From Vicingaceae bacterium (GTDB taxonomy: Bacteria; Bacteroidota; Bacteroidia; Flavobacteriales_E; Vicingaceae), in assembly GCA_965267425.1 (NCBI GenBank), contig OZ253959.1, positions 3,137,836-3,161,835 on the forward strand: a DNA stretch of 24,000 nt, written 5' to 3'. Under the pieces are notes generated by a model, which ran no database searches, had not been told where the DNA came from, and was given only the letters and a program-made list of their open reading frames with translations. The position numbers and the translations under genes were made by a program. Positions 1,716-17,791 of this stretch are shown here, in pieces; positions within the stretch are counted from its first letter, which is position 1, and every line of letters begins with the position of its first letter.

Positions 1716-1761
1716 ATTCAAATTAAAGGGCAGTAGAAAGGACATTCAGAACAAGAAAATT

Positions 1762-2820: not shown

Positions 2821-2835
2821 AAATAGTTGATCAAA

Positions 2836-3474: not shown

Positions 3475-3545
3475 GTCATTACTGGTCATTTTATTTCCAA
3501 AGGCAAAGGATTATCTTGAGCGCTATCTTGAGAGGAGGAACAGCT

Positions 3546-6500
3546 ATGTTAACTAATTTGAAAATAAGCGCACCGGGATGGACAGCAAGAATTGCTGTGG
3601 TTATTTCCTTATTTCTTATTTCTTCTTTCGCGATAGGACAATTGTCGACAGTAACAACTGCCAACTTATCCATTTGCCCGGGAGGATCAGCAAGTTTATT
3701 AACCACTCCTTCTGGTGGAACATCATATACATACTCTTGGTCACCGGCAGGTTCATTGTCCAATGCAGCCATTGCAAATCCTGTTGCCACACCTACAGTT
3801 ACTACAAAATATTTTATAACCGTTACAGATGTGCCAACATCTGCAACTTTTACTGATTCTGTCACTGTTACTGTGGCTAATGTACCTCCTGCTTTGACAA
3901 TCGTTCCGGATGTTGACACCATATGTGCTGGAGATTCTACCCAGCTTGAGGTTTTTAATTCTCCGGTATGTGGCACAGTTCCTGGATCAACTTGCATTGG
4001 CACATCAAGCACGGGAATTGTTGGAACTGGAACGTTTGGAACATCAGCACAAACGGTTAGTCCCTATTACAAAAGATATCAGGTATTTCCACTATTCACC
4101 ATTGATAACAGGAGTACCAAACATCAAATGATCTACACCAAAGACGAATTGAATGCGGTAGGAATCATTGGACAAAGAACCATTTCTGCAATTGCATATA
4201 ATGTATTAGGCGTTCCCAGTGGATTGACTCCTTACATTGATTTCACTATTAAAATGAAATGTGTTACCGCATCTGCCCTCTCAAGTACATTTGAAACAGG
4301 CATGCAAACTGTTTTTGATCCCAAATCAGTAACCGTTACCAATGGATGGAATGAACACGTTTTTGACAATTCATTTGTTTGGGATGGCACAAGTAATATT
4401 GTAGTAGAAGTCTGCTTTCAAGATGTTGCTACCACCGCTGTCTTCCAGAGTCCAACGGTGGAATGGACTAATGGTGTAGGATTTGGCGCGACAAATACCT
4501 CTACCTCAGGAAGTGCATGTGGCGCCACATTTGGATTTGCATTTGTTCCTCAATCCAGAGTAAATACCAGATTTAGGCATTGCCAAGCAACTCATTCCAG
4601 TGGATTGACATTTAGTTGGACGCCAACGGCCGGACTCAGCAGTGCAATTATCAGCAATCCTCATGCCTTTCCGGGAACATCCACCTCTTATGTGCTAACT
4701 GCCACCGATGCTGGAAATTGTGAATTTATTGATACGGCGGAAATTACTGTGGCTCCCAATTTCAATTTATCCGTAACTGCAGATACCGTATTATGTGGGG
4801 AAGACAGTATTAACTTGGTTGCCACTGATAATGCAGGTGCTGGAGCGACTTATTCATGGACCCCTGCTGCTCTTGTGGCTAACCCTAATGTGGCTTCTAC
4901 CAAAGGTTTGGTGAGTGGAAACTTTAGTTATCTGATCAGTGTCAAGTCCACAGCAGGATGTGAAAAAACAGATAGTACCGTGGTTAGTCTATATCCACCT
5001 GTAGATGTGGAAATTGTAACGCAAGATACATCCATTTGTGCCGGAGACACGTTGCAGCTCGAAAGCACAACGTTAAATGCAAATTGTTATACATCACCGG
5101 GATACGGTTGTCCTTCTCCAACTTCAAGAATTGTGGGAACAGGAGTTGGCGCTTTCAATTTTTGGACGGCGAACCCATTTAATGCAACAGCTAGCCCGTT
5201 TGTAACTTCTCCCGGACATAGAAAACAAATATTGTTTACCAAGGCTGAATTAAATGCTGCTGGCTTGGACGCCAGTACGTCCATTACAGCCATTGCGTTT
5301 GATGTAGCTTCCTTTTCTGGAACTTCAACATTTAATGGTTTTACTGTCAAAATGAATTGTACATCGCTGGATGAATTCCCTCTATTCGGTGGAGTATATG
5401 AAACAGGGTTGACAACTGTGATGAATCCAACTGCCGTGACCATCAATTCAGGATGGGTTGATCTTACATTCACCAGTGCTTTTAACTGGGATGGTGAATC
5501 AAATGTGATCATAGAAGTATGTTGGCAAAATTCAAGTTCATTGGTTACGGGGACTCAACAAGTGGTGAATTATTCCACCCTTTCCAAAAGAATGACCTTG
5601 ACCTCTTTACTAGGATTTGGTGGAGGAGTGGCCTGTGCGGCTGCACCATCAGGTAGTGGATTACAGCGCCCCAATGTAAGATTTAAGACATGCCCGGCTC
5701 CCCCGAATTTGGCATTTAGCTATCAATGGACGCCGACGGTAGGATTAACCGACGATACCATTCCTTCACCTGTCATGAATGGAACCGTGAGCAATAATTA
5801 TGTGCTTACCGTATTTGATGCTTCATCAAATTGTTCAGATACTGATACTGTGGCCATTACTGTTGCACCGAATTTCACGATGAATGCAATGAATGATACG
5901 ACTCTTTGTATTTCAGATTCCTTTAATTTGGCACTTACGCACAACTCTGGACTTCCAGTAACCTATCGATGGACTCCTTCATCCATGATGAATGACTCTA
6001 CATTGGCCGCACCTTTTGCAGTCATTGATAAGAGTTACAATGTTTCCGTTGAAGTTGAATCTAGCCTCGGGTGTATAAAAAGAGATACCGTAGACATTAC
6101 ACTATTAAATCAGGTAGCGTTTGACATTAGTTTAATTGACTCCGTGGCATGTCAAGATGATTCTTCGCAATTTGTGGTAGATCAACATTTGGATAACGGA
6201 ATTGGAGAATCTTCTTTATGCACTGCCTTTAATTCAGCCACCATTGGAACTTCGTCGTCAGCATCGTTTGCGACCAATACAACTCCTTTTTTACATATTA
6301 ATCCAAGTACAAAGAGACAGTATATCATGCGTGCCAGTGAATTAACTGCCGCAGGAATTAATTCAGGGCAATTGTCATCCATTGCCATTAATGTGTTGTT
6401 CCTCGGAAGTACCACTACGTATCAGAACTTTGTCATTAAGATAGGCACAACAACGTTGGATGCGTTTTCTACCACAGCATTCGCCAGTGGGCTTGAGACA

Positions 6501-8327
6501 GTAATGGGACCATCCAATATTGTTATTAACGCGGGCTGGAATACCTTTTTGTTTGATAACCTCTACAACTGGGATGGAAAGTCGAATCTAATCATTGAAT
6601 TGTGTTATGATAATGGTTCCGGAGGTGGATTTGGGGCTTCTTCTTCTGTATACTATTCCAATAAAACATATACATCTACTTTATTTGCAGCGGGTACGGC
6701 TCAATGTGGAATTGCGAATGGTTCTTTGACGTCTCGTAGACCGAATTTCATGTTCAATTATTGCAATTACGTACCAGGTCCATTTGCCTATTCATGGTCA
6801 CCATCCATATTCTTAAGTAATCCAAACATCAAAGAACCTGGGGTTATCCTGGATAGTACCAGAACTTATTATTTGACTTCTACAGATTTGAATTCATTGT
6901 GTACCTATGTTGATAGCATAACATTTGAAGCACGCGATTTCAACATTTTGGCATTAACAGACACTGGCTTGTGTTCAACAATGGATTACCAACTAGAAGT
7001 AGTAACGGATGCTGTAGCGCCTGTCACTTATGAATGGACTCCTTATGCATGGGTATCAGACTCCTCTATAGCAAATCCAGTTTCTGTTGTTTCCAATGGA
7101 TCATTCTATTCGGTGAGAGTTACTGACTCGGCAGGATGTGTTAAATACGATACCGTTGACGTTCAATTATATCCAAACATATTTCCAACTGTGACCCCAG
7201 ATACTACCTGGTGTGTCAATACAGATCTTGTATTGCAGGCTACTGGAGGAGACTTTTATAATTGGAGCCCTTCGAATGGTTTGAGTAATGCCAGTATTCC
7301 AAATCCAACTGCAACCGTTACCATGCCAATTACCTATGTGGTAAATATTTCGAACACATTTGGTTGTACAGGCAGTGATACGGTTACCATTGGCTTGCAT
7401 GATTCGCCTCCTTTGGACTTAGGTCCAGATACTTCATACTGTAATGGCGGTTGGTTAATTCTTGATCCAGGTGATGAATTTGTCTCATACGAATGGCAGG
7501 ACTTATCTACGGATCAAACATTTCTTGTTACCAACGACGGTAATTTCTCCGTGAAAACAGAAGATGAATTCGGGTGTTTCCAAACAGATTCTGTTGAAAT
7601 TGGTATTGCCCCTATTCCAACAACTGACTTTGATTTTAATACTGCGTTGTGCGTTGGAGATTCCTTGTATTTGGATGCTGGGAATGTTGGTTCAACGTAT
7701 TTGTGGTCGACAGGTGAAAATTCACAATTTACCCTGGTCAAAGACAGTGGACTAATCTGGGTGGAAATAGATGATGGAATTTGCGTGGGAAGAGATACCA
7801 CGAGAGTCGTATTAACTGAATACCCGGTTTCTGAACTACCAGAACTTGTAACTTATTGCAATCGCGATAATCCATTTGGTGTGGTTATCAGAGCGGGTGA
7901 TGAACAGTTTAGATATAGATGGTCCAATAACCGTGCTACCAATCAAATCATTGCTGTGGATGATGGTATGTATACGGTGAGTATTACCAAAGATTTGGTT
8001 TGTACCATTCAAGATACAGTAGAGGTTAAATACTATTGTCCGGGAACATTCTTTGTGCCAACGTCTTTTACACCTAATTCGGATGGTGTCAATGATTATT
8101 TTTCCATTGCCGGAACACAAGTAGAAGACTTCTTATTTGAAATTTATGATAGATGGGGGCATGCCATCTTACGTTCTCATGATCCTGATTTTGTGTGGGA
8201 TGGTTATTTTAAGGGAAATCCCGTCCAGGCAGGAACGTATGTTTGGAAATTAACCTATAAAGTCACGGAACTTGATGGGGTAGTTACCGAAAAACAAGAA
8301 TACGGTAACCTACATATCTTGCGCTAA
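3546..8327 (+). CDS. Giant (~1590 aa) cell-surface protein with a T9SS type B C-terminal sorting domain
   Basis: This is a long uninterrupted ORF. The ORF-track start at 3516 is a TTG. The ATG at 3546 is preceded by AGGAGG (3533-3538) and yields a signal peptide (MLTNLKISAPGWTARIAVVISLFLISSFAIGQ). The C-terminus (FFVPTSFTPNSDGVNDYFSIAG...VWDGYFKGN...GTYVWKLTY...GNLHILR) carries the type B CTD signature. The interior has three large modules plus Ig-like xYxW[ST]P / YxWSTG repeats. Confidence 0.85.
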   Translation: MLTNLKISAPGWTARIAVVISLFLISSFAIGQLSTVTTANLSICPGGSASLLTTPSGGTSYTYSWSPAGSLSNAAIANPVATPTVTTKYFITVTDVPTSATFTDSVTVTVANVPPALTIVPDVDTICAGDSTQLEVFNSPVCGTVPGSTCIGTSSTGIVGTGTFGTSAQTVSPYYKRYQVFPLFTIDNRSTKHQMIYTKDELNAVGIIGQRTISAIAYNVLGVPSGLTPYIDFTIKMKCVTASALSSTFETGMQTVFDPKSVTVTNGWNEHVFDNSFVWDGTSNIVVEVCFQDVATTAVFQSPTVEWTNGVGFGATNTSTSGSACGATFGFAFVPQSRVNTRFRHCQATHSSGLTFSWTPTAGLSSAIISNPHAFPGTSTSYVLTATDAGNCEFIDTAEITVAPNFNLSVTADTVLCGEDSINLVATDNAGAGATYSWTPAALVANPNVASTKGLVSGNFSYLISVKSTAGCEKTDSTVVSLYPPVDVEIVTQDTSICAGDTLQLESTTLNANCYTSPGYGCPSPTSRIVGTGVGAFNFWTANPFNATASPFVTSPGHRKQILFTKAELNAAGLDASTSITAIAFDVASFSGTSTFNGFTVKMNCTSLDEFPLFGGVYETGLTTVMNPTAVTINSGWVDLTFTSAFNWDGESNVIIEVCWQNSSSLVTGTQQVVNYSTLSKRMTLTSLLGFGGGVACAAAPSGSGLQRPNVRFKTCPAPPNLAFSYQWTPTVGLTDDTIPSPVMNGTVSNNYVLTVFDASSNCSDTDTVAITVAPNFTMNAMNDTTLCISDSFNLALTHNSGLPVTYRWTPSSMMNDSTLAAPFAVIDKSYNVSVEVESSLGCIKRDTVDITLLNQVAFDISLIDSVACQDDSSQFVVDQHLDNGIGESSLCTAFNSATIGTSSSASFATNTTPFLHINPSTKRQYIMRASELTAAGINSGQLSSIAINVLFLGSTTTYQNFVIKIGTTTLDAFSTTAFASGLETVMGPSNIVINAGWNTFLFDNLYNWDGKSNLIIELCYDNGSGGGFGASSSVYYSNKTYTSTLFAAGTAQCGIANGSLTSRRPNFMFNYCNYVPGPFAYSWSPSIFLSNPNIKEPGVILDSTRTYYLTSTDLNSLCTYVDSITFEARDFNILALTDTGLCSTMDYQLEVVTDAVAPVTYEWTPYAWVSDSSIANPVSVVSNGSFYSVRVTDSAGCVKYDTVDVQLYPNIFPTVTPDTTWCVNTDLVLQATGGDFYNWSPSNGLSNASIPNPTATVTMPITYVVNISNTFGCTGSDTVTIGLHDSPPLDLGPDTSYCNGGWLILDPGDEFVSYEWQDLSTDQTFLVTNDGNFSVKTEDEFGCFQTDSVEIGIAPIPTTDFDFNTALCVGDSLYLDAGNVGSTYLWSTGENSQFTLVKDSGLIWVEIDDGICVGRDTTRVVLTEYPVSELPELVTYCNRDNPFGVVIRAGDEQFRYRWSNNRATNQIIAVDDGMYTVSITKDLVCTIQDTVEVKYYCPGTFFVPTSFTPNSDGVNDYFSIAGTQVEDFLFEIYDRWGHAILRSHDPDFVWDGYFKGNPVQAGTYVWKLTYKVTELDGVVTEKQEYGNLHILR
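3918..7205 (+). repeat. Three tandem diverged protein modules inside the giant CDS: 3918-5030 (371 aa), 5031-6143 (371 aa) and 6144-7205 (~354 aa)
   Basis: The modules align by eye. Each starts with xxC[AQ][GD]D..Q[LF]. Next comes a Cys-framed ~180-205-aa domain (3969-4583, 5085-5693, 6219-6764) with conserved K[HR]Q..[YFM]T[KR].EL[NT]A[AV]G[IL], I[ST]AIA[YFI][ND]V, F[TV]IK[MI], GW[NV]...F...[FY].WDG.SN[ILV][IV][IV]E[VL]C and R.N.[RM]F..C. It is followed by two Ig-like repeats ([FY]S[WY].W[TS]P... and TY.WTP...). The similarity is at protein level only. Confidence 0.8.
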
Positions 8328-9125
8328 TTAGTCAGCGTCTAGTCCAACAGGAAATTTTTTTCTAAATGCGATGAGATCATCAATGTTAATGATGGATGTC
8401 AAAATTTGATCGGATGCTCCTTGAGAGACAATTTTATCATTTCCTTTAAAATCGATAATAGCAGAGTCGCCATTATAGTGAATGGCGTTACCGTCCATCC
8501 CTACACGATTTACCCCTACCACGAAACACTGATTTTCAATGGCACGTGCTCTCAACAGTGTTTCCCAGGCATTCTTTCTGGGTGACGGCCAGTTGGCCAC
8601 GTAGATTAACAAGTCATATAAAGCATCATATTCCTTGTTTCCCTTTTCATAGTATTCATTTCTAGACCATACCGGAAATCGCAAATCATAACAAATGAAT
8701 GGACATATTTTCCACCCATTGAAATCAACCACAACCTTTTCCTCCCCGGCAGTGTAATATTTGTCCTCATCCGCCATCCGAAACAAATGCCGCTTGTTGT
8801 ATATCTTCCTGTTCCCATCGGGATCCACCCAAATGAGCCGATTGTATACCTTGCCATTTTCAGATACCATGACACTTCCCGTAATCGCAAGATTGTATTT
8901 TTTCGACAGTGATTCCATCCAAGACCCCGTGGAATCTTCCTCTGAAGGTTCTGCCAATGCGTTCACATTCATACTAAATCCGGTGGTAAACATCTCTGGC
9001 AGCACCAAGAGATCTACATCGCTGTTAAGGGATTTAATTTTTTCTTCAAACAACTGCTTATTTTTCTGAGGATCTTCCCAGTGCAAAATGGACTGTACCG
9101 CAGCAATATGCAATTGTTTTTTCAT
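8328..9125 (-). CDS. yafV: Omega-amidase (2-oxoglutaramate amidase), nitrilase/CN-hydrolase superfamily, YafV type
   Basis: There is strong colinear similarity, from memory, to E. coli YafV: LVLPEMFTTGFSM (Glu), YNKRHLFRMADE (Lys), ICYDLRFPVWSRN (Cys), YVANWPSPR and RARAIENQCFVVGVNRVG. I place the start at M22 of the track ORF (ATG 9125-9123, MKKQLHIAAVQ). The longer ORF would overlap the upstream gene by 64 nt. Confidence 0.85.
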   Translation of the reverse strand: MKKQLHIAAVQSILHWEDPQKNKQLFEEKIKSLNSDVDLLVLPEMFTTGFSMNVNALAEPSEEDSTGSWMESLSKKYNLAITGSVMVSENGKVYNRLIWVDPDGNRKIYNKRHLFRMADEDKYYTAGEEKVVVDFNGWKICPFICYDLRFPVWSRNEYYEKGNKEYDALYDLLIYVANWPSPRKNAWETLLRARAIENQCFVVGVNRVGMDGNAIHYNGDSAIIDFKGNDKIVSQGASDQILTSIINIDDLIAFRKKFPVGLDAD

Positions 9126-10285
9126 TAAGTGACCGAATTCAAAATTTCTGCCGCTTCTTTCAACGTTTCTTTTTCCTTGGCAAAACAAAAGCGTAGAACG
9201 TGGTTTTCCACTTTACTGTGATAAAAGACAGAAACAGGAATAGCCGCAATCTTGTATTTTTTGATCAAATGCAGTGCATATTCATTGTCAGGCATATCAG
9301 AAATGGCATCGTACCTGAGTAATTGAAAATAGGTGCCTGCAGACGGTAGGATTTCAAATTTGGAGTTTTTTAATAGTCCATTGAAATAATCTCTTTTTTT
9401 CTGGTAAAATTCTCCAAGTTTCAGATAATGTGAGGATTTATCCATATAATCTGCCAAAGCATATTGTATAGGCGTATTTACTGCAAATACGATAAACTGA
9501 TGTGCTTTTCGTATTTCCTTCATGATGTTTTCTGGCGCTAGGCAATAGCCTATTTTCCACCCTGTACAATGGTAGGTCTTTCCAAATGAAGAAACCACTA
9601 TGCTTTGAGCAGCCAGTTCAGGGCTTTGCATCACACTATTGTGCTCATTGTCATCAAAAACAACATGCTCGTACACTTCATCACTCAACACAAAAATGTC
9701 CGTCCCTTTCACAATTTTTTCAAGTTCCGACAAGTCGTTCTTTGACAACACCGTTCCAGTTGGGTTATGTGGTGTATTGATGATGATCATTCTTGTTTTT
9801 TGATTGATCACTTTTTTCACCTCTTCCCAGTCAATGCAATAGTCTGGAAGTTTTAATTGTACAAAAACAGGTTTTCCGCCATTCAACTTAATGGCAGGCT
9901 CATAACAATCATAAGCAGGAGTGAATATAATAACCTCATCATCTTCATTTATCAGGGATGCGATTACCGCATAAATCGCTTGAGTAGCGCCAGCGGTTAT
10001 TGTAATCTCCTTTTCGGCATCATATTTGCAACCATAAAGTGACTTGGTCTTCTCTGCAATCTTTTTTAGCAATCCCGGATGACCCGGCATTGGAGCATAC
10101 TGATTGTGCCCCTTTTTCATGTAGTGATGGACCCGGTTGATTAAATCTTCAGGCATGTCAAAATCAGGGAATCCTTGTGAAAGGTTTAATGCCCCTGCCT
10201 TGGCAGCATGCTGGTTAATGAGCGAAAAAATACTTTGATCCGTTTGTGGTAACTTAGAACGAATCGAGCCATTATAATGAATCAT
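9125..10285 (-). CDS. PLP-dependent class I aminotransferase of the YbdL / kynurenine-glutamine transaminase type (methionine aminotransferase-like)
   Basis: It carries the N-terminal ALNLSQGFPDFDMP motif, the YAPMPGHPGL motif, NTPHNPTG, and the PLP-lysine motif SSFGKTYHCTGWKIGY. Its stop codon (9127-9125) overlaps the yafV start as TAATG. Confidence 0.85.
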   Translation of the reverse strand: MIHYNGSIRSKLPQTDQSIFSLINQHAAKAGALNLSQGFPDFDMPEDLINRVHHYMKKGHNQYAPMPGHPGLLKKIAEKTKSLYGCKYDAEKEITITAGATQAIYAVIASLINEDDEVIIFTPAYDCYEPAIKLNGGKPVFVQLKLPDYCIDWEEVKKVINQKTRMIIINTPHNPTGTVLSKNDLSELEKIVKGTDIFVLSDEVYEHVVFDDNEHNSVMQSPELAAQSIVVSSFGKTYHCTGWKIGYCLAPENIMKEIRKAHQFIVFAVNTPIQYALADYMDKSSHYLKLGEFYQKKRDYFNGLLKNSKFEILPSAGTYFQLLRYDAISDMPDNEYALHLIKKYKIAAIPVSVFYHSKVENHVLRFCFAKEKETLKEAAEILNSVT

Positions 10286-10362
10286 AGGACAGTCTCTTCA
10301 GCGCGAAGGTAAAGAATTCAATATTGTAAATATAAAAATGTATTTGGCTAACTTACCCTTTT

Positions 10363-10370
10363 TATCTTTG
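10363..10370 (+). promoter_or_regulatory. Candidate Bacteroidota -7 promoter box TAtcTTTG upstream of the DUF547 gene
   Basis: It is an exact match to the Bacteroidetes sigma-A -7 consensus TAnnTTTG, 16 nt before ATG 10386, in the 100-nt divergent intergenic region. Confidence 0.4.
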
Positions 10371-10385
10371 TGTAACCGCAGTCTT

Positions 10386-11105
10386 ATGAAGTATATACAA
10401 TTTCTTACGTTGGTGGTCTTATTTCCTGTGTTGACAATTGCTCAGGTACCATCTCATTCTCAATGGAATACATTGTTACAAGCTTGTGTTAGTCCTGATG
10501 GGCAGGTCAATTACAAAGCTTTTAAAGCCCGACAGTCTGAACTGGATAATTACCTAAAAACATTGGCTGATGCCACACCTGGAAGCAGCTGGAGTTCAAA
10601 TGATAAATTGGCCTATTGGATCAATGCGTACAATGCATTTACGGTAAAACTTATTATCGACAATTATCCTTTAAAGAGCATTATGGATTTGGAAAAAGAT
10701 GGTGTTTCTCCATGGGATAAAAAATTTATCAAAATGCATGGGAAGACGTATACATTAAACCATATTGAACATCAAATTCTGAGGAAGGATTTCAGTGAAC
10801 CTCGCATTCATTTTGCCGTGAATTGTGCTTCACAATCTTGCCCAGATTTGCTTAATCGAGCGTATACTGGGAAAAATGTTTCGGCTGAATTGGAAAAAAG
10901 TACCAAAAAATTTATCAATAATTCTCAGCACAACAAACTCGCCTCAGGTTCGGCCAAAGTGTCTAAAATATTTGAGTGGTTTAAGGAAGACTTTACCAAA
11001 AATGGTTCGGTAATTGATTTCCTTAACAAATATGCCGCAGTGAAAATAGATAAGAATGCGACCATCAGTTATTTGGATTATGACTGGTCTTTGAACGGTT
11101 ACTAG
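10386..11105 (+). CDS. Secreted DUF547 domain protein
   Basis: It has the typical DUF547 blocks YWINAYNAFTVKLIIDNYPLKSI, LNHIEHQILR and PRIHFAVNCASQSCPDL. I prefer the start at ATG 10386 (MKYIQFLTLVVLFPVLTIAQ signal peptide) because a TAtcTTTG -7 box at 10363-10370 lies inside the longer track ORF. Confidence 0.8.
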   Translation: MKYIQFLTLVVLFPVLTIAQVPSHSQWNTLLQACVSPDGQVNYKAFKARQSELDNYLKTLADATPGSSWSSNDKLAYWINAYNAFTVKLIIDNYPLKSIMDLEKDGVSPWDKKFIKMHGKTYTLNHIEHQILRKDFSEPRIHFAVNCASQSCPDLLNRAYTGKNVSAELEKSTKKFINNSQHNKLASGSAKVSKIFEWFKEDFTKNGSVIDFLNKYAAVKIDKNATISYLDYDWSLNGY

Positions 11106-11129
11106 CAATAAACTTAATAGATACGATTT

Positions 11130-11465
11130 ATGGATGATGCTTACTACAAAGCAGCCGATCTGAAAAAGTTTGGCGATATCAAGGATTTTGAACCCAATTT
11201 GGCAGATAAATTTTTTACCTATTACAATGAAGTGTTTAAAGATGGAGCGCTCACGGCAAGAGAGAAATCTTTAATTGCATTGGCGGTATCGCATACCGTT
11301 CAGTGCCCATATTGTATTGATGCTTACACTGAAGATGCGCTGCAAAGAGGAATGGAAGAAGCCGAAATGATGGAAGCTGTTCATGTTGCTGCAGCCATAA
11401 GAGGGGGTGCCTCTTTGGTTCACGGTGTTCAAATGATGGAAAAGGTGAAAAAACAAAGCATGTAA
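11130..11465 (+). CDS. AhpD/carboxymuconolactone-decarboxylase-fold CxxC protein, arsenosugar biosynthesis-associated peroxidase-like family
   Basis: It is a ~110-aa CMD-fold protein with REKSLIALAVSHTVQCPYCIDAYT (CxxC at 11304-11315). It lies immediately upstream of ArsS. This matches the family named by genomic context as arsenosugar-associated peroxidase-like (TIGR04169, accession from memory). Confidence 0.8.
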   Translation: MDDAYYKAADLKKFGDIKDFEPNLADKFFTYYNEVFKDGALTAREKSLIALAVSHTVQCPYCIDAYTEDALQRGMEEAEMMEAVHVAAAIRGGASLVHGVQMMEKVKKQSM

Positions 11466-11472
11466 TTGGAGT

Positions 11473-12534
11473 TTGGAAAAGAGTCTACATAAACAAAACA
11501 ACACAATTGCCGATCCAAAAGTTCAATTGGAACATTTGAGCAATGGCCTTTTCAAATCAGGCACATTAAACGACTTTAGGAGCACTTTGGTTGACAACAA
11601 TATTGACATGTTGAGAGCGAGCGATCCTGAAATTTTGCAAGTCAATGTGGGTTACATGTGCAATCAGGTATGCAAGCATTGCCATGTTGATGCCGGTCCG
11701 GATAGAAAAGAAATCATGTCTCGAGAAACAATGACACATTGCCTCGATGTGCTGAGACAAAATGACTCTATAAATACATTGGATCTAACGGGTGGTGCCC
11801 CGGAAATGAATCCGGATTTCAGATGGTTCGTTGAAGAATCAAGGAAAGCAAAACCAAATTTGGACATCATTGTGCGTTCCAATCTCACGATCATATTGGC
11901 CAATCCAAAGTACCATGATCTGCCTGAGTTTTTCAAAAAAAACAATATTCACGTAGTTTCTTCTTTACCGTATTATAAAGCAGCTAAAACGGATAATCAA
12001 AGAGGAAAAGGAGTCTTTTCAAAATCAATTGAAGCGTTGATTTTGTTAAACAAACAAGGATACGGAATGCCTGATAGTCAATTGCAACTGGATTTAGTAT
12101 ATAATCCTGCCGGGGCTTTTTTACCCGCTGATCAATCGCAACTTGAAGCAGAATACAAAAGAGAATTGTTCAATGAATTTGGTATACAGTTTCATTCTCT
12201 TTTTGCGTTGACCAATATTCCGGTTAATCGTTTTTTGGAATATTTAATTCGAAGTGGGAATTATGAAGATTATATGACCAAATTGGTTAATGCATTTAAT
12301 CCTGCTACAATTGAAGGCTTGATGTGTTTAAACACATTGTCCATTGACTACCAGGGATATATTTACGATTGTGACTTCAATCAAATGTTAGATCTGGGCA
12401 GTGGTTTAAAAGACAAACTTCATGTGAGTTCCGTTTCTTCTGCGGAATTGAAAGGGCGAATTGTAAAGACCAGCCAACATTGTTATGGTTGCACCGCTGG
12501 TGCCGGTTCCAGTTGTCAGGGTACTCTATCATAA
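11473..12534 (+). CDS. arsS: Arsenosugar biosynthesis radical SAM protein ArsS
   Basis: It has the radical SAM cluster motif LQVNVGYMCNQVCKHCHVDAGP (CxxxCxxC) and the family-typical Cys-rich C-terminus CYGCTAGAGSSCQGTL. The start is uncertain. I take the TTG at 11473 because the N-terminal segment before the first ATG (M46) aligns with conserved ArsS N-terminal sequence. Confidence 0.85.
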   Translation: MEKSLHKQNNTIADPKVQLEHLSNGLFKSGTLNDFRSTLVDNNIDMLRASDPEILQVNVGYMCNQVCKHCHVDAGPDRKEIMSRETMTHCLDVLRQNDSINTLDLTGGAPEMNPDFRWFVEESRKAKPNLDIIVRSNLTIILANPKYHDLPEFFKKNNIHVVSSLPYYKAAKTDNQRGKGVFSKSIEALILLNKQGYGMPDSQLQLDLVYNPAGAFLPADQSQLEAEYKRELFNEFGIQFHSLFALTNIPVNRFLEYLIRSGNYEDYMTKLVNAFNPATIEGLMCLNTLSIDYQGYIYDCDFNQMLDLGSGLKDKLHVSSVSSAELKGRIVKTSQHCYGCTAGAGSSCQGTLS

Positions 12535-13144
12535 TTCTATTTTGACAGCTTCCCTTATCATATTTGCAAAAAACCCGGTTGCCGGAAATGTGAAAACCCG
12601 GCTTGCAAAAGATATTGGAGAAGAAGAAGCTTTGAACGTTTACAAATGGTTGTTGCATTGCACTTCTTCCGCCATTGAAAATCTGAAGTTTACAAGAACC
12701 GTATATTTTGATAATCTCCCAGATAAATCTGATTTGCCCGATTTTGCTGAATTTCAATGGAGATTGCAAGAAGGTCAAGATCTTGGAGAAAAAATGAAAA
12801 ATGCCTTTCAATCAGAATTTGAGCGTGCTGAAAAAGTGATTATCATTGGAAGTGATTGTCCAGACATTACGGATGTTCATCTAACTTCAGCGCTTGACCT
12901 ACTTGACCATAACGATGCTGTCGTTGGTCCTGCTTCAGATGGAGGTTATTATTTGTTGGGGTTAAACTCGTTGCATACGACTTTATTTGATGGAATTTCA
13001 TGGAGTTCAGACGAGGTTCTGGAATTGACCATTGATAAACTGGAACAATCAGGGTTGACTTTTGCATTGTTAGAAGAGTTAACAGACATTGATACGGTTG
13101 AAGACCTTAAATCAAAAACATCAGATGTCAGAATATTTAAATAA
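12485..13144 (+). CDS. DUF2064 / TIGR04282-family glycosyltransferase-like protein (arsenosugar-associated transferase 1)
   Basis: It has the N-terminal LIIFAKNPVAGNVKTRLA and IIIGSDCPDIT motifs and GPASDGGYYLLGL, all typical of DUF2064. The only ATG (12485) overlaps arsS by 50 nt. An alternative TTG at 12542 sits just after the arsS stop and would give the family-typical short N-terminus. Confidence 0.8.
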   Translation: MVAPLVPVPVVRVLYHNSILTASLIIFAKNPVAGNVKTRLAKDIGEEEALNVYKWLLHCTSSAIENLKFTRTVYFDNLPDKSDLPDFAEFQWRLQEGQDLGEKMKNAFQSEFERAEKVIIIGSDCPDITDVHLTSALDLLDHNDAVVGPASDGGYYLLGLNSLHTTLFDGISWSSDEVLELTIDKLEQSGLTFALLEELTDIDTVEDLKSKTSDVRIFK

Positions 13145-13946
13145 TATAAATGAAAGTGCTTCATTCATTTCAGGGCAATTGAATGCGCAACCTGAAATTG
13201 GAATAATACTGGGTACTGGATTGGGAGGATTGATAGACCATATGGAAATCTCACATTCCTTGTCGTATGAAAATATCCCTCATTTTGCTCAATCTACCGT
13301 GGAATCTCATTCTGGGAAACTGCATTTTGGAACCATCCATGGCAAACAATTAATGGTCATGCAAGGTCGTTTTCATTTCTACGAAGGGTACGACATGAAA
13401 CAAATTGCTTTTCCTGTTTACGTCATGAAGGCCCTGGGTGTAAAAAAATTGATTGTCTCCAACGCTGCAGGAAATATGAATCTTGATTGGAACAAAGGAG
13501 ATTTGATGCTTATTGAAGATCACATTAACCTGTTTCCTGACAACCCGTTGAGAGGAATAAACAACGACTCCCTTGGACCTAGATTTCCTGATATGAGCGA
13601 GGCTTATAGTCGTGCCCTGGGCGAAAAGGCACTTCAACACTCAGCCAACCTCAATATAACCCTTCGTAAAGGAGTATATGTTGGTGTCTCTGGTCCAAAC
13701 CTGGAAACGGCAGCAGAATATCGCTTTCTCAGAAGAATTGGTGCTGATGCTGTGGGCATGTCAACGGTTCCGGAAATCATAGCTGCCAACCATTGTGGAT
13801 TAGAATGTCTGGCCATTTCTGTATTGACAGACGATTGTGATCCGGACAATCTTCAACCTGTGAATATTGTAGAAATACTTGAAGTGGCTGGTAAGGCCGA
13901 AAAGAAGTTATCAATCCTCATTTCAAATGTTTTAAAAGAATTGTAA
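13125..13946 (+). CDS. Purine nucleoside phosphorylase homologue (trimeric PNP-I / PunA family) with Asp at the Asn243-equivalent position
   Basis: It is colinear with human PNP / PunA blocks: GIILGTGLGGL, MVMQGRFHFYEGY, SNAAGN, GPRFPDMSEAY, GPNLETAAE and GADAVGMSTVPE. I prefer the start at ATG 13125 (MSEYLNNINESASFI), which overlaps the upstream gene by 20 nt. Confidence 0.85.
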   Translation: MSEYLNNINESASFISGQLNAQPEIGIILGTGLGGLIDHMEISHSLSYENIPHFAQSTVESHSGKLHFGTIHGKQLMVMQGRFHFYEGYDMKQIAFPVYVMKALGVKKLIVSNAAGNMNLDWNKGDLMLIEDHINLFPDNPLRGINNDSLGPRFPDMSEAYSRALGEKALQHSANLNITLRKGVYVGVSGPNLETAAEYRFLRRIGADAVGMSTVPEIIAANHCGLECLAISVLTDDCDPDNLQPVNIVEILEVAGKAEKKLSILISNVLKEL

Positions 13947-14917
13947 TGGAATCATATTTAGAAAAAACCATAGATGTATATGAACAAGCAGCCAAAACTC
14001 CTGATGTAGGGTTGTGCTGCACCACGAGTCCAATTTGGCAACTTCCGGGATTAAGCATCCCTGGAAAAATGCTCAGCATGAACTATGGTTGCGGAACTAC
14101 CGTTCACCCTAGAGATTTAGTCAATGATCCATCTATTTTATATGTTGGCGTGGGCGGTGGAATGGAGTTATTACAATTTTCATATTTCAGCCGAAAACCA
14201 TCAGGAGTGACAGGTGTTGATGTAGTGGATAAAATGTTGAAAGCAGCGGATGAAAATTTGATGAAAGCAGAAGAATCCAATGATTGGTTTCAACGGAATT
14301 TTGTGGATTTGAAAAAAGGTGATGCCACAAATTTACCTGTAGATGATGGCAGTATGGATGTTGTTGCGCAAAATTGTCTTTTTAATATTTTCAAAGACCA
14401 TGAGCTCAAAGCCGCGTTGGAAGAAACATACAGAGTGTTGAAACCTCATGGAAGGTTTGTTTCATCCGATCCAGTTTGTGAATCAGGAATTCCAGATCAC
14501 TTGAAGGAAGATGAACATTTACGTGCACTTTGTCTTAGTGGTTCCATTCCATTGGATGAATACATCAAATACATGACAGATATTGGATTTGGGACCATTG
14601 AAGTTCGGGCGCGCAGACCCTACAGAATATTGCATCCAAATCATTACGATGTTGAACAACCCATTGAGATAGAGAGTGTTGAAGTTTGTGCCATAAAAGA
14701 CCCAATGCCAGAAGATGGCCCTTGTGTATTTACCGGTAGAAGTGCCATATACGTAGGAAAAGAAGAACATTTTGACGATGGTAAAGGGCATCTACTTTTA
14801 CCCAATCAGCCAATAGCTGTTTGTGATAAAACAGCATCAAACTTACAATCTCTTGAAAGAGATGACATGTTTGTCACGCCAAGTACGTACTTTTACGATG
14901 GCGGAGGATGTTGTTAA
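13946..14917 (+). CDS. arsM: Arsenite S-adenosylmethionine methyltransferase (ArsM-like)
   Basis: It has a class I SAM-MTase core (ILYVGVGGGMEL). Cysteines sit at the spacing of the four conserved ArsM cysteines: GLCCTTSP (C24/25), NYGCG (C49), AQNCLFN (C144) and RALCLSG (C196). The start ATG overlaps the PNP stop as TAATG (13944-13948). Confidence 0.8.
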   Translation: MESYLEKTIDVYEQAAKTPDVGLCCTTSPIWQLPGLSIPGKMLSMNYGCGTTVHPRDLVNDPSILYVGVGGGMELLQFSYFSRKPSGVTGVDVVDKMLKAADENLMKAEESNDWFQRNFVDLKKGDATNLPVDDGSMDVVAQNCLFNIFKDHELKAALEETYRVLKPHGRFVSSDPVCESGIPDHLKEDEHLRALCLSGSIPLDEYIKYMTDIGFGTIEVRARRPYRILHPNHYDVEQPIEIESVEVCAIKDPMPEDGPCVFTGRSAIYVGKEEHFDDGKGHLLLPNQPIAVCDKTASNLQSLERDDMFVTPSTYFYDGGGCC

Positions 14918-14973
14918 ACCGGGAAAGCCATCCTTTTGAAATAAATATTCGTCTACTTTTAAAAAGGAAATTT

Positions 14974-17025
14974 ATGAAATACTTCTACGGTCTTATAATC
15001 CTGTTTTCTTCTGCGATTGTTTTGGGTCAAACACGTATTGATTCTTCATTTGCGTTTGGAACCAATCCGGCAAAAAAATATTCAATTTACATCCCCAGCA
15101 ATTATAATGCTGGTGTTCCAAATGAGCTCATGGTGGGATTTCACCCATTTAATGTCTCTGTTTGGGATGCAGAAGCTTGGTGTGACACGCTCATCCAATT
15201 CAGTGAATCAAACGATTTAATCTTGGTATGTCCGGATGGAGGTACGAATGGTAATATTACTGATGCCATAGATTACGGCTTTACCACTGCATTGTTGGAT
15301 TCCATGAAACTATGGTATTCCATTGATACGAATCGAATATATGCCATGGGGTTTTCAATGGGCGGAGTAGCAACTTATGAATATGGCCTTCAATTTCCGG
15401 AAGTTTTTGGAGGATATTTACCTATTGGCGCTGCCATCAATGGCACTGGTTCCTTCAGCTCTGATCTGCCAAATTCGGGACAAAAACCGTTTTATTTGGT
15501 ACATGGGGCTAATGATGCACCAAACACCCGATATTGGCCTGCAATTAATGGATTAAACGCAAATTGTGCCATAGTCAATAGCATGTTGATGACTGGTGTT
15601 GGGCATACCATTAATTTCCCTAATCGAAATCAAATTTTATCAGATGCATACCAATGGATTGATTCAGTAAATGTTACACCAAGAAGTGGAGGGTTTAACT
15701 TAATCAGTCCGATTTCCTTTTCTTCACTTGATGTGAAAGGGTTTTCTAATCTGGAAACCGTATTGACATGGGAATCAAATTCCATAGCAGATACTTGTGG
15801 CGTTATGAAATATGAATTCATGTTGGACGTTTCCAATGGATCATTTACTCCACCAATCTATACCAGATTAAGTGATAACAATGGCGAAGACACAACGCTC
15901 ACTTTTACCAATCACGAATTGGACAGCCTGTTAAATTCATTTGGTGTTCTTCCTGGAGCTTCCATCACCCTTAAATGGGCCGTTCGTTCTAATTTATTTA
16001 ATCAATGGTATGACACGGCAAAAGCTTTTATCATTACAGTAAACCGAGGAACCGTGGGTTTTAAAAGTACTGACCCTTTTGACAGTGCAAGAGAAACTTT
16101 GGTTCAAGATGCAACACTGCGTTTTGAATGGACTGCGATGAATCATTCGGCTCCTGTGACTTATGCACTTGAAATTGATTCTGTTGGTGCTGATTTTGCT
16201 TCTCCAATTGTCACCTATGTACCTGCCAATGGCGCCTTAAATAATTTCGTTGTCGCTGAACATGAACAATTATATTATGACTTTCTCATGCCCGACAATG
16301 CAGTTCAGGGAGATTCCATTATGTTGTCATGGCGGGCTGTGGCAATGGAAGGTACACATATAGAATATTCCAATCCAAGAACACTAACGCTAATAAAAGA
16401 CTCCGTTGGAGTATCCCTAAAGTTTCCACTTAGCGAATCTGAATTGATCAGCCAATCAGGTTTTGATTATTCGTTCACTTGGGACAGTGTAGGTGTTGCC
16501 AATATTACTTATGAATTTTTGATAGATACCACTCTTGCCGGATTGACAGGATCTCCCAAGTCCTACCAATCTGACAATGGAGGAAACGATGCTCAGATCT
16601 TTATTCCATATGAACGTATGGATTCTATTGCTCATCATTTTGGGATTAACTATACGGACACCTTAAAGGCCTACTGGACTGTAAAAGTTACTCACCCCAA
16701 TGGATTTGAGTATGCACTTGAACCTTTTTTGGTGTATGTTCACCGCGATGTGCCTATTGGAATTGAGCAAGTATTCACTCAGGAAAACATTGCTGTGTTT
16801 CCAAATCCTTCCAAAGATCAGGTTACACTTCAATTTGAACCCTTGAGTGAAGCGGGAATTCTAAGAATTCTTGATGCTGAAGGAAAACTCGTTTTCCTGT
16901 CGAATCTAAACAAAACTCAACAGCGTGTTGAATTGGATATTCATTCCTGGGAACCTGGTATTTATCAGGTTCAATTCCAGTCTGGAAAATCAATGATTCA
17001 CAGCCGAATAGTAAAGGTTGAGTAA
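14974..17025 (+). CDS. Secreted alpha/beta-hydrolase (carboxylesterase / PHB-depolymerase-like) with three internal ~115-aa repeats and a T9SS type A C-terminal sorting domain
   Basis: It has a signal peptide (MKYFYGLIILFSSAIVLGQ) from ATG 14974. The nucleophile elbow is GFSMGG, with a candidate Asp in HGANDA and His in GVGHT. The C-terminal ~75 aa (VFPNPSKDQVTLQF...ILDAEGKLVF...GIYQVQFQSG...SRIVKVE) show the Por/T9SS type A CTD pattern (TIGR04183-like). Confidence 0.8.
   Translation: MKYFYGLIILFSSAIVLGQTRIDSSFAFGTNPAKKYSIYIPSNYNAGVPNELMVGFHPFNVSVWDAEAWCDTLIQFSESNDLILVCPDGGTNGNITDAIDYGFTTALLDSMKLWYSIDTNRIYAMGFSMGGVATYEYGLQFPEVFGGYLPIGAAINGTGSFSSDLPNSGQKPFYLVHGANDAPNTRYWPAINGLNANCAIVNSMLMTGVGHTINFPNRNQILSDAYQWIDSVNVTPRSGGFNLISPISFSSLDVKGFSNLETVLTWESNSIADTCGVMKYEFMLDVSNGSFTPPIYTRLSDNNGEDTTLTFTNHELDSLLNSFGVLPGASITLKWAVRSNLFNQWYDTAKAFIITVNRGTVGFKSTDPFDSARETLVQDATLRFEWTAMNHSAPVTYALEIDSVGADFASPIVTYVPANGALNNFVVAEHEQLYYDFLMPDNAVQGDSIMLSWRAVAMEGTHIEYSNPRTLTLIKDSVGVSLKFPLSESELISQSGFDYSFTWDSVGVANITYEFLIDTTLAGLTGSPKSYQSDNGGNDAQIFIPYERMDSIAHHFGINYTDTLKAYWTVKVTHPNGFEYALEPFLVYVHRDVPIGIEQVFTQENIAVFPNPSKDQVTLQFEPLSEAGILRILDAEGKLVFLSNLNKTQQRVELDIHSWEPGIYQVQFQSGKSMIHSRIVKVE
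15691..16746 (+). repeat. Three tandem ~112-122-aa protein-level repeats in the hydrolase (about 15691-16056, 16057-16410, 16411-16746)
   Basis: Each unit has [FL]xW[ET/DS].. followed by [YT]Y[EA][FL].[LI]D, then a loosely conserved middle, then L.[WS][AR/TV][VK]. The repeats are diverged and were recognised by eye only. Confidence 0.55.
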
Positions 17026-17361
17026 CTATAAAATTTTATTCAGCATTAATATGAGCTCCTGTTCAAGAGGGTTGAAATCGTCATGTTCCAATTTAAAAAT
17101 TTGACGCATTTTGGCGATTACCTCTTCTTTTGACTCATACTGATCTTTAAATTTTGCAAATAGTCCTTGCAAGGTTTCAATGTGATCTATATCATTCTGC
17201 GCACTAAAGATTTCATTGATTTTATCAAATTCATCTTGTCCCAATAAGGAAACAATATGGGCTTTTTCTTTTTCAGTAATGGTGAAATCTGCTGATGCTG
17301 CATAGATCATCAGGTACGCAAGAAAATCATCATGCGTGCAGCTTTCTATCGAAAATGACAT
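17026..17361 (-). CDS. Hypothetical small acidic helical protein (possibly TerB-like fold)
   Basis: This 111-aa ORF lies 16 nt downstream of the bacilliredoxin gene on the same strand. The pattern LAYLMIYAASADFTITEKEKAHIVSLL resembles TerB/DjlA-N-type helical domains. The assignment is tentative. Confidence 0.55.
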   Translation of the reverse strand: MSFSIESCTHDDFLAYLMIYAASADFTITEKEKAHIVSLLGQDEFDKINEIFSAQNDIDHIETLQGLFAKFKDQYESKEEVIAKMRQIFKLEHDDFNPLEQELILMLNKIL

Positions 17362-17377: not shown

Positions 17378-17791
17378 TTAGCAATACTCGTTAAATGCTG
17401 CTTTCAAATTATCCGATACCATGTCTGCCGTACTTCCTTCAATGTGATGACGCTCAATGAAATGAACCAACTTTCCATCTTTAAACAGCCCAATGGCGGG
17501 AGAAGATGGAGGGTAAGGCAACATGTATTTTCTTGCTTGTTCCGTAGCTTCAGTATCAACACCTGCAAATACAGTCGTCAATTTTCCTGGAACCTTATCA
17601 TTGCTAAGTGAATTTAAGACAGCTGGTCGAGCGCTGCCCGCAGCACATCCGCAAACAGAATTGACAACTACAAGTACAGTACCGTTATCCGGATTCATCA
17701 TCTCATCAACTTCTGACGCATTGGTCAATTCACTGAATCCTACTGACGTAAGCTCCTCTTTCATTGGAGCAACTAATTCTGGTGGGTACAT
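17378..17791 (-). CDS. BrxA/BrxB (YphP/YqiW, DUF1094) family bacilliredoxin
   Basis: It has the family-typical N-terminus MYPPELVAPMKEELT and the CGC redox motif VVNSVCGCAAGSARP (codons on the + strand at 17645-17653). Confidence 0.85.
   Translation of the reverse strand: MYPPELVAPMKEELTSVGFSELTNASEVDEMMNPDNGTVLVVVNSVCGCAAGSARPAVLNSLSNDKVPGKLTTVFAGVDTEATEQARKYMLPYPPSSPAIGLFKDGKLVHFIERHHIEGSTADMVSDNLKAAFNEYC

Follow-up and report, generated by a model that had tools for sequence, protein, structure and literature searches.

The 24,000-nucleotide (nt) stretch of DNA considered here, referred to below as the window, comes from a Vicingaceae bacterium of the phylum Bacteroidota (NCBI GenBank assembly GCA_965267425.1, contig OZ253959.1, positions 3,137,836 to 3,161,835 of the forward strand), and all coordinates are given within it. 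Its central part carries, on the plus strand, a tightly packed set of genes for a DUF547 protein, an AhpD-like CxxC protein, the radical S-adenosylmethionine (SAM) enzyme ArsS, a protein of family TIGR04282 (DUF2064), a homologue of purine nucleoside phosphorylase (PNP), and the As(III) SAM methyltransferase ArsM. This article describes the locus and its relatives, and considers the part that these genes may play in the biosynthesis of arsenosugar-type compounds.

Arsenosugars are the main arsenic species of marine algae and seafood, and the scheme for their biosynthesis dates from the 1980s. To our knowledge, the arsenosugar enzymes assigned so far are ArsM and ArsS only, and those in cyanobacteria only. 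As late as 2023, a review ascribed the removal of adenine to a hypothetical ‘adenosyl nucleosidase’ (PMC10456119). The cluster type represented in the window and the names of its genes are already to be found in databases; what goes beyond annotation is the linkage and the active-site pocket of the phosphorylase, together with a nucleotidyltransferase model for the TIGR04282 protein.

Organization of the gene cluster

Five consecutive plus-strand open reading frames (ORFs) occupy positions 11130–14917, and every junction between them, as read from the sequence, is either a gap of at most 7 nt or an overlap. The first encodes a 111-residue AhpD-like CxxC protein (11130..11465), a member of the arsenosugar-associated ‘peroxidase-like’ family (TIGR04169; Pfam domain CMD). 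Its stop codon, at 11465, is separated by 7 nt from the TTG start, at 11473, of the gene for the 353-residue radical SAM enzyme ArsS (11473..12534; TIGR04167; Radical_SAM and DUF3641 domains). This TTG is the public gene call, and the first 46 residues that follow from it are conserved in 22 Bacteroidota homologues. The gene for the TIGR04282 protein (DUF2064 and CofC domains), which ends at 13144, has two candidate starts: an ATG at 12485, which overlaps the ArsS gene (stop at 12534) by 50 nt and is the public call, giving 219 residues, and a TTG at 12542, which leaves a gap of 7 nt and gives 200 residues. The TTG start is at least as likely, because the homologues are mostly 193–211 residues long and the family model begins at residue 24 of the longer form. 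The gene for the 273-residue PunA-type (trimeric-family) PNP homologue (13125..13946; NF006054; PNP_UDP_1) begins with an ATG at 13125, before the stop codon at 13144, thus overlapping its predecessor by 20 nt, and it ends in a TAATG sequence that provides a 1-nt overlap, at 13946, with the gene for the 323-residue arsenosugar-type ArsM (13946..14917; NF038099; Pfam methyltransferase domains). An earlier reading made from the letters of the window alone (the sequence-only reading) had described five packed same-strand genes joined by an overlap or abutment of arsS and the DUF2064 gene, a 20-nt overlap of the latter with the PNP gene, and a TAATG junction of the PNP gene with arsM, and all of this is borne out.

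The unit is nevertheless probably one of six genes, and not of five as that reading had it. The gene for a DUF547 protein of 239 residues (10386..11105, plus strand; Pfam PF04784, 105.7 bits; public start at 10386), which it had missed, is separated from the AhpD-like gene downstream on the same strand by only 24 nt and recurs in related clusters, holding the same upstream position in four of them (L031, L032, L036, and L083, where L numbers denote loci fetched for comparison, the first three being from Tenacibaculum and Polaribacter). It is probably the first gene of an operon that comprises DUF547, AhpD-like, ArsS, TIGR04282, PNP, and ArsM genes (approximately 10386–14917), the co-transcription of which we infer. 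The arrangement goes beyond chance, since the same set recurs beside ArsS in dozens of species-level genomes. The DUF547 protein has an N-terminal segment resembling a signal peptide and two invariant cysteines (NCASQSCP, in 37 of 37 homologues); it looks exported, and outside the cytoplasm it may act on the product.

Family membership of the AhpD-like protein, ArsS, and ArsM

Family membership was assessed by comparing scores against NCBIfam hidden Markov models (HMMs) with their curated cut-offs, and by Pfam domains. The AhpD-like protein scores 182.8 bits against TIGR04169 (cut-off 120), and its C59-x-x-C62 motif is invariant in 75 of 75 homologues. ArsS reaches 434 bits against TIGR04167, for which the equivalog cut-off is 300, and possesses the C-terminal Cys-rich DUF3641 domain (PF12345, 182 bits); the cysteines of its CX3CX2C motif (C63, C67, and C70), as well as C285, C300, C337, C340, and C348, are invariant in 81 of 81 homologues. 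ArsM scores 539.5 bits against NF038099 (cut-off 400), and C24, C25, C49, C144, and C196 are invariant in 44 of 44 homologues. The assignments proposed in the sequence-only reading thus hold on HMM comparison: the TIGR04169, TIGR04167, TIGR04282, PNP, and NF038099 proteins are all above curated cut-offs, so that none of the families falls below its trusted score.

Arsenosugar clusters are defined in databases by ArsS, TIGR04169, TIGR04282, TIGR04283, and ArsM. Four of these five families are present here, the missing one being TIGR04283, a family 2 glycosyltransferase (GT2) that has no tblastn match anywhere in the window, just as the sequence-only reading had noted. That reading is equally upheld in its statement that arsenic resistance genes do not flank the operon: none of arsR, acr3/arsB, and arsC occurs among the window genes, and the locus does not qualify as an ars resistance operon.

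Distribution and gene context of related clusters

The closest relatives of the window ArsS are 62–66% identical to it, and many relatives carry the PGAP name ‘arsenosugar biosynthesis radical SAM (seleno)protein ArsS’, among them proteins of Formosa, Psychroserpens, Galbibacter, Fulvivirga, and other Flavobacteriaceae and Cytophagales. When one genome was scanned for each species, ArsS relatives turned up in at least 598 loci, and all of the nearest 80 are from Bacteroidota. The sequence-only reading had considered the heterotrophic Bacteroidota host noteworthy; with at least 598 species representatives possessing ArsS, and with such names already assigned in many Flavobacteriaceae and Cytophagales, it is not unusual.

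ORFs were called and clustered in the nearest 80 loci and the recurrent families named, and the counts that follow refer to the 57 well-flanked loci, i.e., those with at least 3 kb upstream and at least 5 kb downstream of ArsS. The AhpD-like gene lies directly upstream of ArsS in 54 of the 57, and as the most constant partner of ArsS it suggests a thiol/disulfide role; the probable function of the CxxC protein is to provide ArsM or ArsS with thiol reducing power, or to recycle it. A DUF2064-family gene is found near ArsS in 49 loci, PNP and a rhodanese in 33 each, ArsM in 30, DUF547 in 28, the GT2 TIGR04283 in 24, and a fatty-acid hydroxylase in 18. Every one of the 33 PNP-bearing loci also has a DUF2064-family gene. 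The common order in Flavobacteriaceae is AhpD-like, ArsS, exported rhodanese (NF045521), TIGR04282, PNP, ArsM, OlsE-like fatty-acid hydroxylase, DUF547, and GT2 (TIGR04283), and the layout sometimes ends with a pyridine-nucleotide disulfide oxidoreductase and a membrane 4Fe-4S protein.

The window is therefore a compact member of a known cluster type that is widespread in Bacteroidota, and it is without the GT2, the rhodanese, and the hydroxylase; searches of the window for homologues of the cluster rhodanese and fatty-acid hydroxylase found neither. The route from arsenite that the sequence-only reading had called self-contained is accordingly not shown to be so, since these two proteins and the GT2, the latter encoded in 24 of the 57 related loci, are absent here. 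How such differences arise can be seen in a syntenic relative, L083 (ENA ERZ25074452 ctg12118, 1.63 Mb; 2798–6819), in which the genes for DUF547, AhpD-like protein, ArsS, rhodanese, DUF2064, and PNP are followed directly by the same esterase/SusE/type IX secretion system (T9SS) gene that lies downstream in the window. ArsM is missing from the site in L083, while the window has ArsM and no rhodanese, and genes therefore appear to be gained and lost modularly within one conserved neighbourhood.

The phosphorylase

The PNP homologue belongs to family NF006054, against which it scores 359.5 bits (cut-off 218), and it fails the model for methylthioadenosine phosphorylase, MTAP (TIGR01694; 81.4 bits, cut-off 274.85). 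Its association with arsenosugar genes takes several forms. In most Flavobacteriaceae the order is TIGR04282-PNP-ArsM, whereas L084 and L088 have AhpD-like (CMD)-ArsS-PNP-ArsM, L085 has AhpD-like-ArsS-PNP, and L066 has ArsM-PNP; in L072 the gene lies upstream on the opposite strand. Five of the seven closest PNP homologues examined are encoded less than 3 kb from ArsS, and the other two elsewhere.

The active site was compared in an alignment of 46 PNPs (45 linked to ArsS, and the unlinked protein of L081), with residues numbered as in human PNP. The human sequence used is one that we take to be the reference, and the known active-site positions come out correctly in its numbering; chains in the PDB of the human PNP mutants N243D and H257F served to confirm the register in the window protein. 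The phosphate and ribose ligands H64, R84, H86, Y88, N115, A116, M219, and S220 are kept in all 46 proteins. In human PNP numbering, Asn243 serves in recognition of the 6-oxopurine and His257 is a ligand of the 5′-OH. These two residues of inosine/guanosine-specific PNP are replaced by Asp and Ile in the window protein, and the change is general: F200 has become Leu and N243 Asp in 46 of 46 proteins, and H257 has become Ile in 45 and Leu in one.

The substituted positions find counterparts in human MTAP (the sequence used being identical to PDB 1cb0), in which V233, V236, and L237 form the 5′-methylthio pocket, and D220 and D222 determine base specificity. The window segment T-D-D-C aligns with MTAP T219-D220-Y-D222-C223, such that the N243 position corresponds to D220 and the second Asp to D222, and residues I, I, and L align with V233, V236, and L237, the Ile at position 257 corresponding to V233. 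Because the alignment matches residues of both the base site and the 5′ pocket, the window protein can be regarded as a PunA-type PNP by descent that has the determinants of a 5′-substituted-adenosine phosphorylase. Solved structures of this L200/D243/hydrophobic-257 subtype already exist, since PDB 4lna and 4m1e, the closest solved structures to the window protein, share F200L, N243D, and H257L; the next-closest, 8swt and 8swu, retain His257.

A PNP-centred scan of metagenome contigs provided 80 loci that were divided according to residue 257. Where this residue is hydrophobic, arsenosugar genes are present in the flanks of 12 of 45 loci, and in 11 of the 23 with at least 5 kb upstream (10 of 15 for Ile). 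The F200/D243/H257 relatives, which are 50–53% identical, have them in none of 35 loci (none of 19 with at least 5 kb upstream), and the contrast in linkage between hydrophobic-257 and His257 proteins has a Fisher p of approximately 3e-4, for loci that are phylogenetically non-independent. Comparative support for the PNP homologue as a member of the pathway, which the sequence-only reading had supposed it to be, thus comes both from a linkage that persists across several gene orders and from the MTAP-like pattern of its active site. The idea that the linked PNPs constitute a distinct paralogue was considered and rejected, in that the unlinked protein of L081 does not differ in its pocket residues, and the window protein is no closer to linked PNPs than to unlinked ones.

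The TIGR04282 protein

The TIGR04282 protein scores 205.4 bits against its family model (cut-off 134) and also matches the CofC models TIGR03552 (E 2.7e-9) and PF01983 (E 8.7e-9). Its sole solved sequence relative is the DUF2064 structure PDB 3cgx (E 2e-30). An AlphaFold2 model built on 40 homologues has a mean predicted local distance difference test score of 92, and in a Foldseek comparison of this model with the PDB the matches after 3cgx are FbiD Rv2983 (E 4e-11), CofC MM2497 (TM-score 0.76), and 3-phosphoglycerate guanylyltransferase, with IspD, KdsB, GlmU, and CMP-sugar synthetases as later neighbours; no glycosyltransferase is among the top 50. Residues D105, D182, and D184 are invariant in the family, and in a profile alignment, the weak sequence E-value of which is supported by the fold match, they fall on the ‘AD’ and ‘DID’ positions of CofC. 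In FbiD, three aspartates hold the substrate phosphate via two Mg2+ ions (PMC6450877). The most economical reading of the model is that the TIGR04282 protein would join a phosphorylated substrate to a nucleoside monophosphate. On the combined HMM, Foldseek, and Asp-motif evidence it is predicted to be a CofC/FbiD-like nucleotidyltransferase and not an enzyme that forms glycosidic bonds, and the NCBI name ‘glycosyltransferase’ may well be a misnomer.

The family also occurs apart from ArsS. Two homologues that their sources name ‘TIGR04282 family’ are of this kind. In Leptospira alstonii (L169) the gene is found near an MMPL transporter, and in a metagenome-assembled genome of Balneolaceae (L170) it shares 4 nt with an overlapping GT2 gene; neither has an ArsS gene within 8 kb. 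The TIGR04282 module is thus not strictly tied to ArsS, and the product names that refer to ‘arsenosugar biosynthesis’, which are derived from context, may over-reach for genomes of this kind. The overlapping TIGR04282-GT2 pair of L170 is as expected for a module that activates a sugar and then transfers it.

A proposed pathway and its alternatives

The chances that the six genes form an operon for biosynthesis of an arsenosugar-type organoarsenical, by a pathway that runs from ArsM through ArsS, PNP, and TIGR04282 to GT2, are in our judgement evenly balanced. In the first step, ArsM would convert As(III) to dimethylarsenite, an activity that is established for the family and expected here from family membership. 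In the second, ArsS, as a member of its equivalog family, would move the 5′-deoxyadenosyl group of SAM onto dimethylarsenite, giving 5′-deoxy-5′-dimethylarsinoyl-adenosine; this transfer is established for the cyanobacterial enzyme. Adenine would then be removed by PNP through phosphorolysis, not hydrolysis, with the formation of 5-deoxy-5-dimethylarsinoyl-alpha-D-ribose-1-phosphate, a step proposed because the linkage of the phosphorylase is conserved and its pocket is MTAP-like. In the fourth step, which is suggested by the fold and the three-Asp motif, TIGR04282 would condense the arsenoribose-1-phosphate with a nucleoside triphosphate to give a nucleoside diphosphate (NDP)-arsenoribose. 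Finally, an inverting GT2 of family TIGR04283, encoded elsewhere in the genome if at all, would transfer the arsenoribosyl group to an acceptor as a beta-riboside.

Such a route would be coherent in its stereochemistry. PNP converts a beta-nucleoside to an alpha-ribose-1-phosphate with inversion, the anomeric configuration is retained in nucleotidyl transfer and inverted by GT2 enzymes, and natural arsenosugars are beta-ribofuranosides. The chain from beta-nucleoside to alpha-1-phosphate, alpha-NDP-sugar, and beta-glycoside matches the natural configuration. That the middle of arsenosugar biosynthesis is a sugar-nucleotide route of this kind, in which an MTAP-like PunA-type phosphorylase and a TIGR04282 nucleotidyltransferase are followed by transfer to the aglycone by the GT2 TIGR04283, is put forward as a tentative and still rather doubtful proposal.

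Several observations weigh against this interpretation. At the level of the locus, the co-transcription of the six genes is read from their layout, and the GT2 needed for the last step has no gene in the window. As to the phosphorylase, it passes the ‘inosine/guanosine-specific’ equivalog model TIGR01700 (321.7 bits, cut-off 293.35), and the contrast between linked and His257 proteins is confounded with phylogeny, since many of the His257 loci come from gut metagenomes. Proteins of the L200/D243/I257 subtype are also found away from ArsS (L081, L086, and approximately half of the long metagenome loci), and because of this the PNP is not a dedicated paralogue and may be the general enzyme of its lineage. 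The two middle genes can moreover occur apart, with PNP and no TIGR04282 in L084, L085, and L088, and with TIGR04282 but no nearby ArsS in L169 and L170. Biochemical data on Bacteroidota enzymes of the cluster were not found in the literature searched.

There are other explanations of the phosphorylase. It could be concerned with by-product salvage, as a general 5′-deoxyadenosine/methylthioadenosine phosphorylase of these Bacteroidota that clears the 5′-deoxyadenosine arising from uncoupled SAM cleavage, and this would be why it is encoded beside ArsS. 5′-Deoxyadenosine inhibits radical SAM enzymes, and D243, I257, and L200 fit 5′-deoxyadenosine or methylthioadenosine as well as they fit the arsenical nucleoside. 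The unlinked occurrences of the subtype listed above are what would be expected of a general enzyme, and a methionine-aminotransferase/omega-amidase pair, like the last step of methionine salvage, is encoded just upstream in the window; these neighbours are, however, common to one syntenic relative only. Since ArsS incorporates the 5′-deoxyadenosyl group into its product, as is established for this enzyme, 5′-deoxyadenosine should be a mere side product, and a salvage enzyme would not account well for a PNP gene that mostly lies tight between those for TIGR04282 and ArsM, their codons overlapping, and that, in the ArsS-centred genome loci, always stands alongside a DUF2064-family gene. We regard salvage as unlikely.

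Less probable again is that the PNP is simply the housekeeping purine-salvage enzyme of the lineage and that its position in the operon is functionally meaningless. It does pass PNP equivalog cut-offs, and the window protein is as similar to unlinked PNPs (62–66%) as it is to linked ones. Yet a gene placed by accident would hardly be expected to be linked in at least four gene orders and in 33 of 57 species-level loci, to have codon overlaps on both of its sides, and to encode proteins in which the 5′-OH-binding His is replaced in every one of the 46 aligned.

The cluster as a whole might alternatively make a different product, either an arsenolipid head group or a compound of another metalloid, in which case the ‘arsenosugar’ names over-reach. 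These family names derive from gene context, TIGR04282 is found without nearby ArsS in Leptospira and Balneolaceae, an OlsE-like fatty-acid hydroxylase is an additional member of the fuller Flavobacteriaceae clusters, and several clusters are without a nearby ArsM (L083, L085). We consider this very unlikely in view of ArsS and ArsM proteins that score far above equivalog or exception cut-offs and retain the expected invariant Cys sets. Least likely, finally, is that PNP supplies As(III), by an arsenolysis of purine nucleosides to ribose-1-arsenate that thiols then reduce to arsenite in place of the missing ArsC, although the lack of arsC among the window genes makes this attractive. Thiol proteins are co-encoded, and the reductant could be the AhpD-like CxxC protein or, where other clusters have it, the rhodanese; mammalian PNP, moreover, reduces arsenate in vitro with dithiols, according to references listed in a review (PMC12608789). 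Neither the altered 5′ pocket nor the Asn-to-Asp change is called for by such a role, however, the rhodanese is absent from the window and looks exported, and the same review gives the in vivo occurrence of the reaction as unsettled.

Operon ends, neighbouring genes, and cluster variants

A possible Bacteroidetes-type −7 promoter box, TATCTTTG, is located at 10363..10370 on the plus strand, 16 nt before the DUF547 start codon, and a TTTG lies 16 nt further upstream (10343–10346). The consensus, which we take to be TAnnTTTG, has its sole plus-strand match between 8238 and 19108 at this box. The assignment is nonetheless weak, because TAnnTTTG shows no enrichment over the window, where 15 matches stand against an expected 26. 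Scans of 10100–17300 for sigma-70 promoters (22 found, 21.9 in shuffled sequence) and intrinsic terminators (4 found, 5.1 in shuffled sequence) are uninformative on the ends of the operon, since the counts equal those of shuffled sequence. No terminator-like site is detectable inside the unit or between arsM and the next gene, the folding z score at the 3′ end of arsM being 0.55, and that next gene, which encodes a 683-residue protein with esterase, SusE, and T9SS-tail regions, starts 56 nt downstream of arsM.

Divergent from the operon, and head-to-head with it, the minus-strand region 8328–10285 encodes a methionine aminotransferase (NF006569; 569.8 bits, cut-off 420) paired with a CN-hydrolase amidase (NF007757; 263 bits, cut-off 249). 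The pairing resembles the final transamination/omega-amidase step of methionine salvage, which is suggestive beside an MTAP-like phosphorylase. Membership of the pair in the system was considered and rejected, as among all of the fetched loci it is shared solely with the syntenic L083. A bacilliredoxin of BrxA/BrxB type (17378–17791, minus strand; TIGR04191, 202.8 bits, cut-off 100) is encoded 2.5 kb beyond the end of arsM and has a counterpart in L083. Although a thiol-redox protein in the vicinity of a thiol-dependent pathway, it is not tied to the cluster by anything in other genomes. At the other end of the window (78–8327, plus strand), T9SS type B sorting domain proteins of 545 and 1603 residues flank a PorP/SprF-family gene and a small uncharacterized ORF, and the region looks like a cargo-plus-PorP module. 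The window also encodes a T9SS type A sorting domain, TadA, AspRS, an FtsX-type permease, RbfA, and an ABC transporter. Its two types of T9SS sorting domain, its PorP/SprF protein, and its best database matches all assign the genome to Bacteroidota.

Two variations recur among related clusters. An oxidoreductase of approximately 432 residues, followed by a polytopic NapH-like 4Fe-4S membrane protein of approximately 527 residues, is encoded downstream of the cluster in L011, L013, L016, L028, L041, L047, L049, L055, L061, and others. The oxidoreductase is present in 10 of the 33 PNP-bearing well-flanked loci as against none of the 24 without PNP, the pair being confined to loci with PNP, and the two proteins may together provide the radical SAM enzyme with electrons. 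In several Flavobacteriaceae (L004, L012, L019, L025, L033) the cluster is split by an insertion of approximately 8 kb, lying about +1.1 to +9 kb from ArsS. The insertion begins with a DUF2064 paralogue that falls below the TIGR04282 cut-off (101 bits, cut-off 134, in the representative L035) and continues with a protein of approximately 1065 residues resembling a TonB-dependent/SusC-type receptor, after which the rhodanese, TIGR04282, and PNP genes follow.

Significance and comparison with known systems

As an operon the locus is ordinary for its phylum; it is of value for a pathway hypothesis that can be tested and for the indication that TIGR04282 is probably misnamed. The locus and its relatives provide specific, clonable candidates for the next two steps of arsenosugar biosynthesis, and suggest a stereochemically coherent route through them. 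The open literature searched, the coverage of which was incomplete, yielded no paper that connects a nucleoside phosphorylase, Flavobacteria, or Bacteroidetes with the making of arsenosugars. Arsenosugar compounds may be produced by common heterotrophic marine Bacteroidota and not by phototrophs alone; if the proposal is true, these bacteria would be a source of arsenosugars or arsenolipids that is large and has been overlooked.

The system that has been demonstrated is the cyanobacterial arsM-arsS pair of Synechocystis sp. PCC 6803, which is reportedly the subject of work by Xue and colleagues from 2019; the biochemistry of ArsS is said to have been treated by Cheng and colleagues in 2021. 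There, too, ArsM is found beside a TIGR04167 radical SAM ArsS, and the first two steps are presumably the same. No step has been assigned in that system to a PNP, TIGR04282, AhpD-like, or DUF547 partner, whereas in the window arsM and arsS are embedded in a six-gene Bacteroidota unit with no ars resistance genes nearby. Among Bacteroidota, the extended Flavobacteriaceae cluster of Winogradskyella aurantiaca (L001) has the same six families, with identities of 43–69%, and the same TIGR04282-PNP-ArsM order. It differs in the possession of an exported rhodanese (NF045521), an OlsE-like fatty-acid hydroxylase, and the GT2 TIGR04283, all three of which are missing from the window, and in the position of DUF547, which is downstream of ArsM in L001 and upstream of the AhpD-like gene in the window.

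The two middle proteins can each be set beside enzymes of known activity. The TIGR04282 model has a fold in common with the CofC/FbiD guanylyltransferases and sugar-1-phosphate nucleotidyltransferases (Foldseek E 4e-11 to 2e-10, TM-score 0.70–0.76), and the N-terminal K-T-R-L segment and three-Asp metal/phosphate site of CofC/FbiD are found in TIGR04282 as well; it is nevertheless a separate family (DUF2064), only 15–21% identical to these enzymes. The phosphorylase is likewise PunA-type by sequence and not an MTAP, being 25% identical to the human enzyme, but residues D220, D222, V233, V236, and L237 of MTAP/MtnP have counterparts in D, D, I, I, and L of the window protein, and both enzymes would yield a 5-substituted ribose-1-phosphate from a 5′-substituted adenosine.

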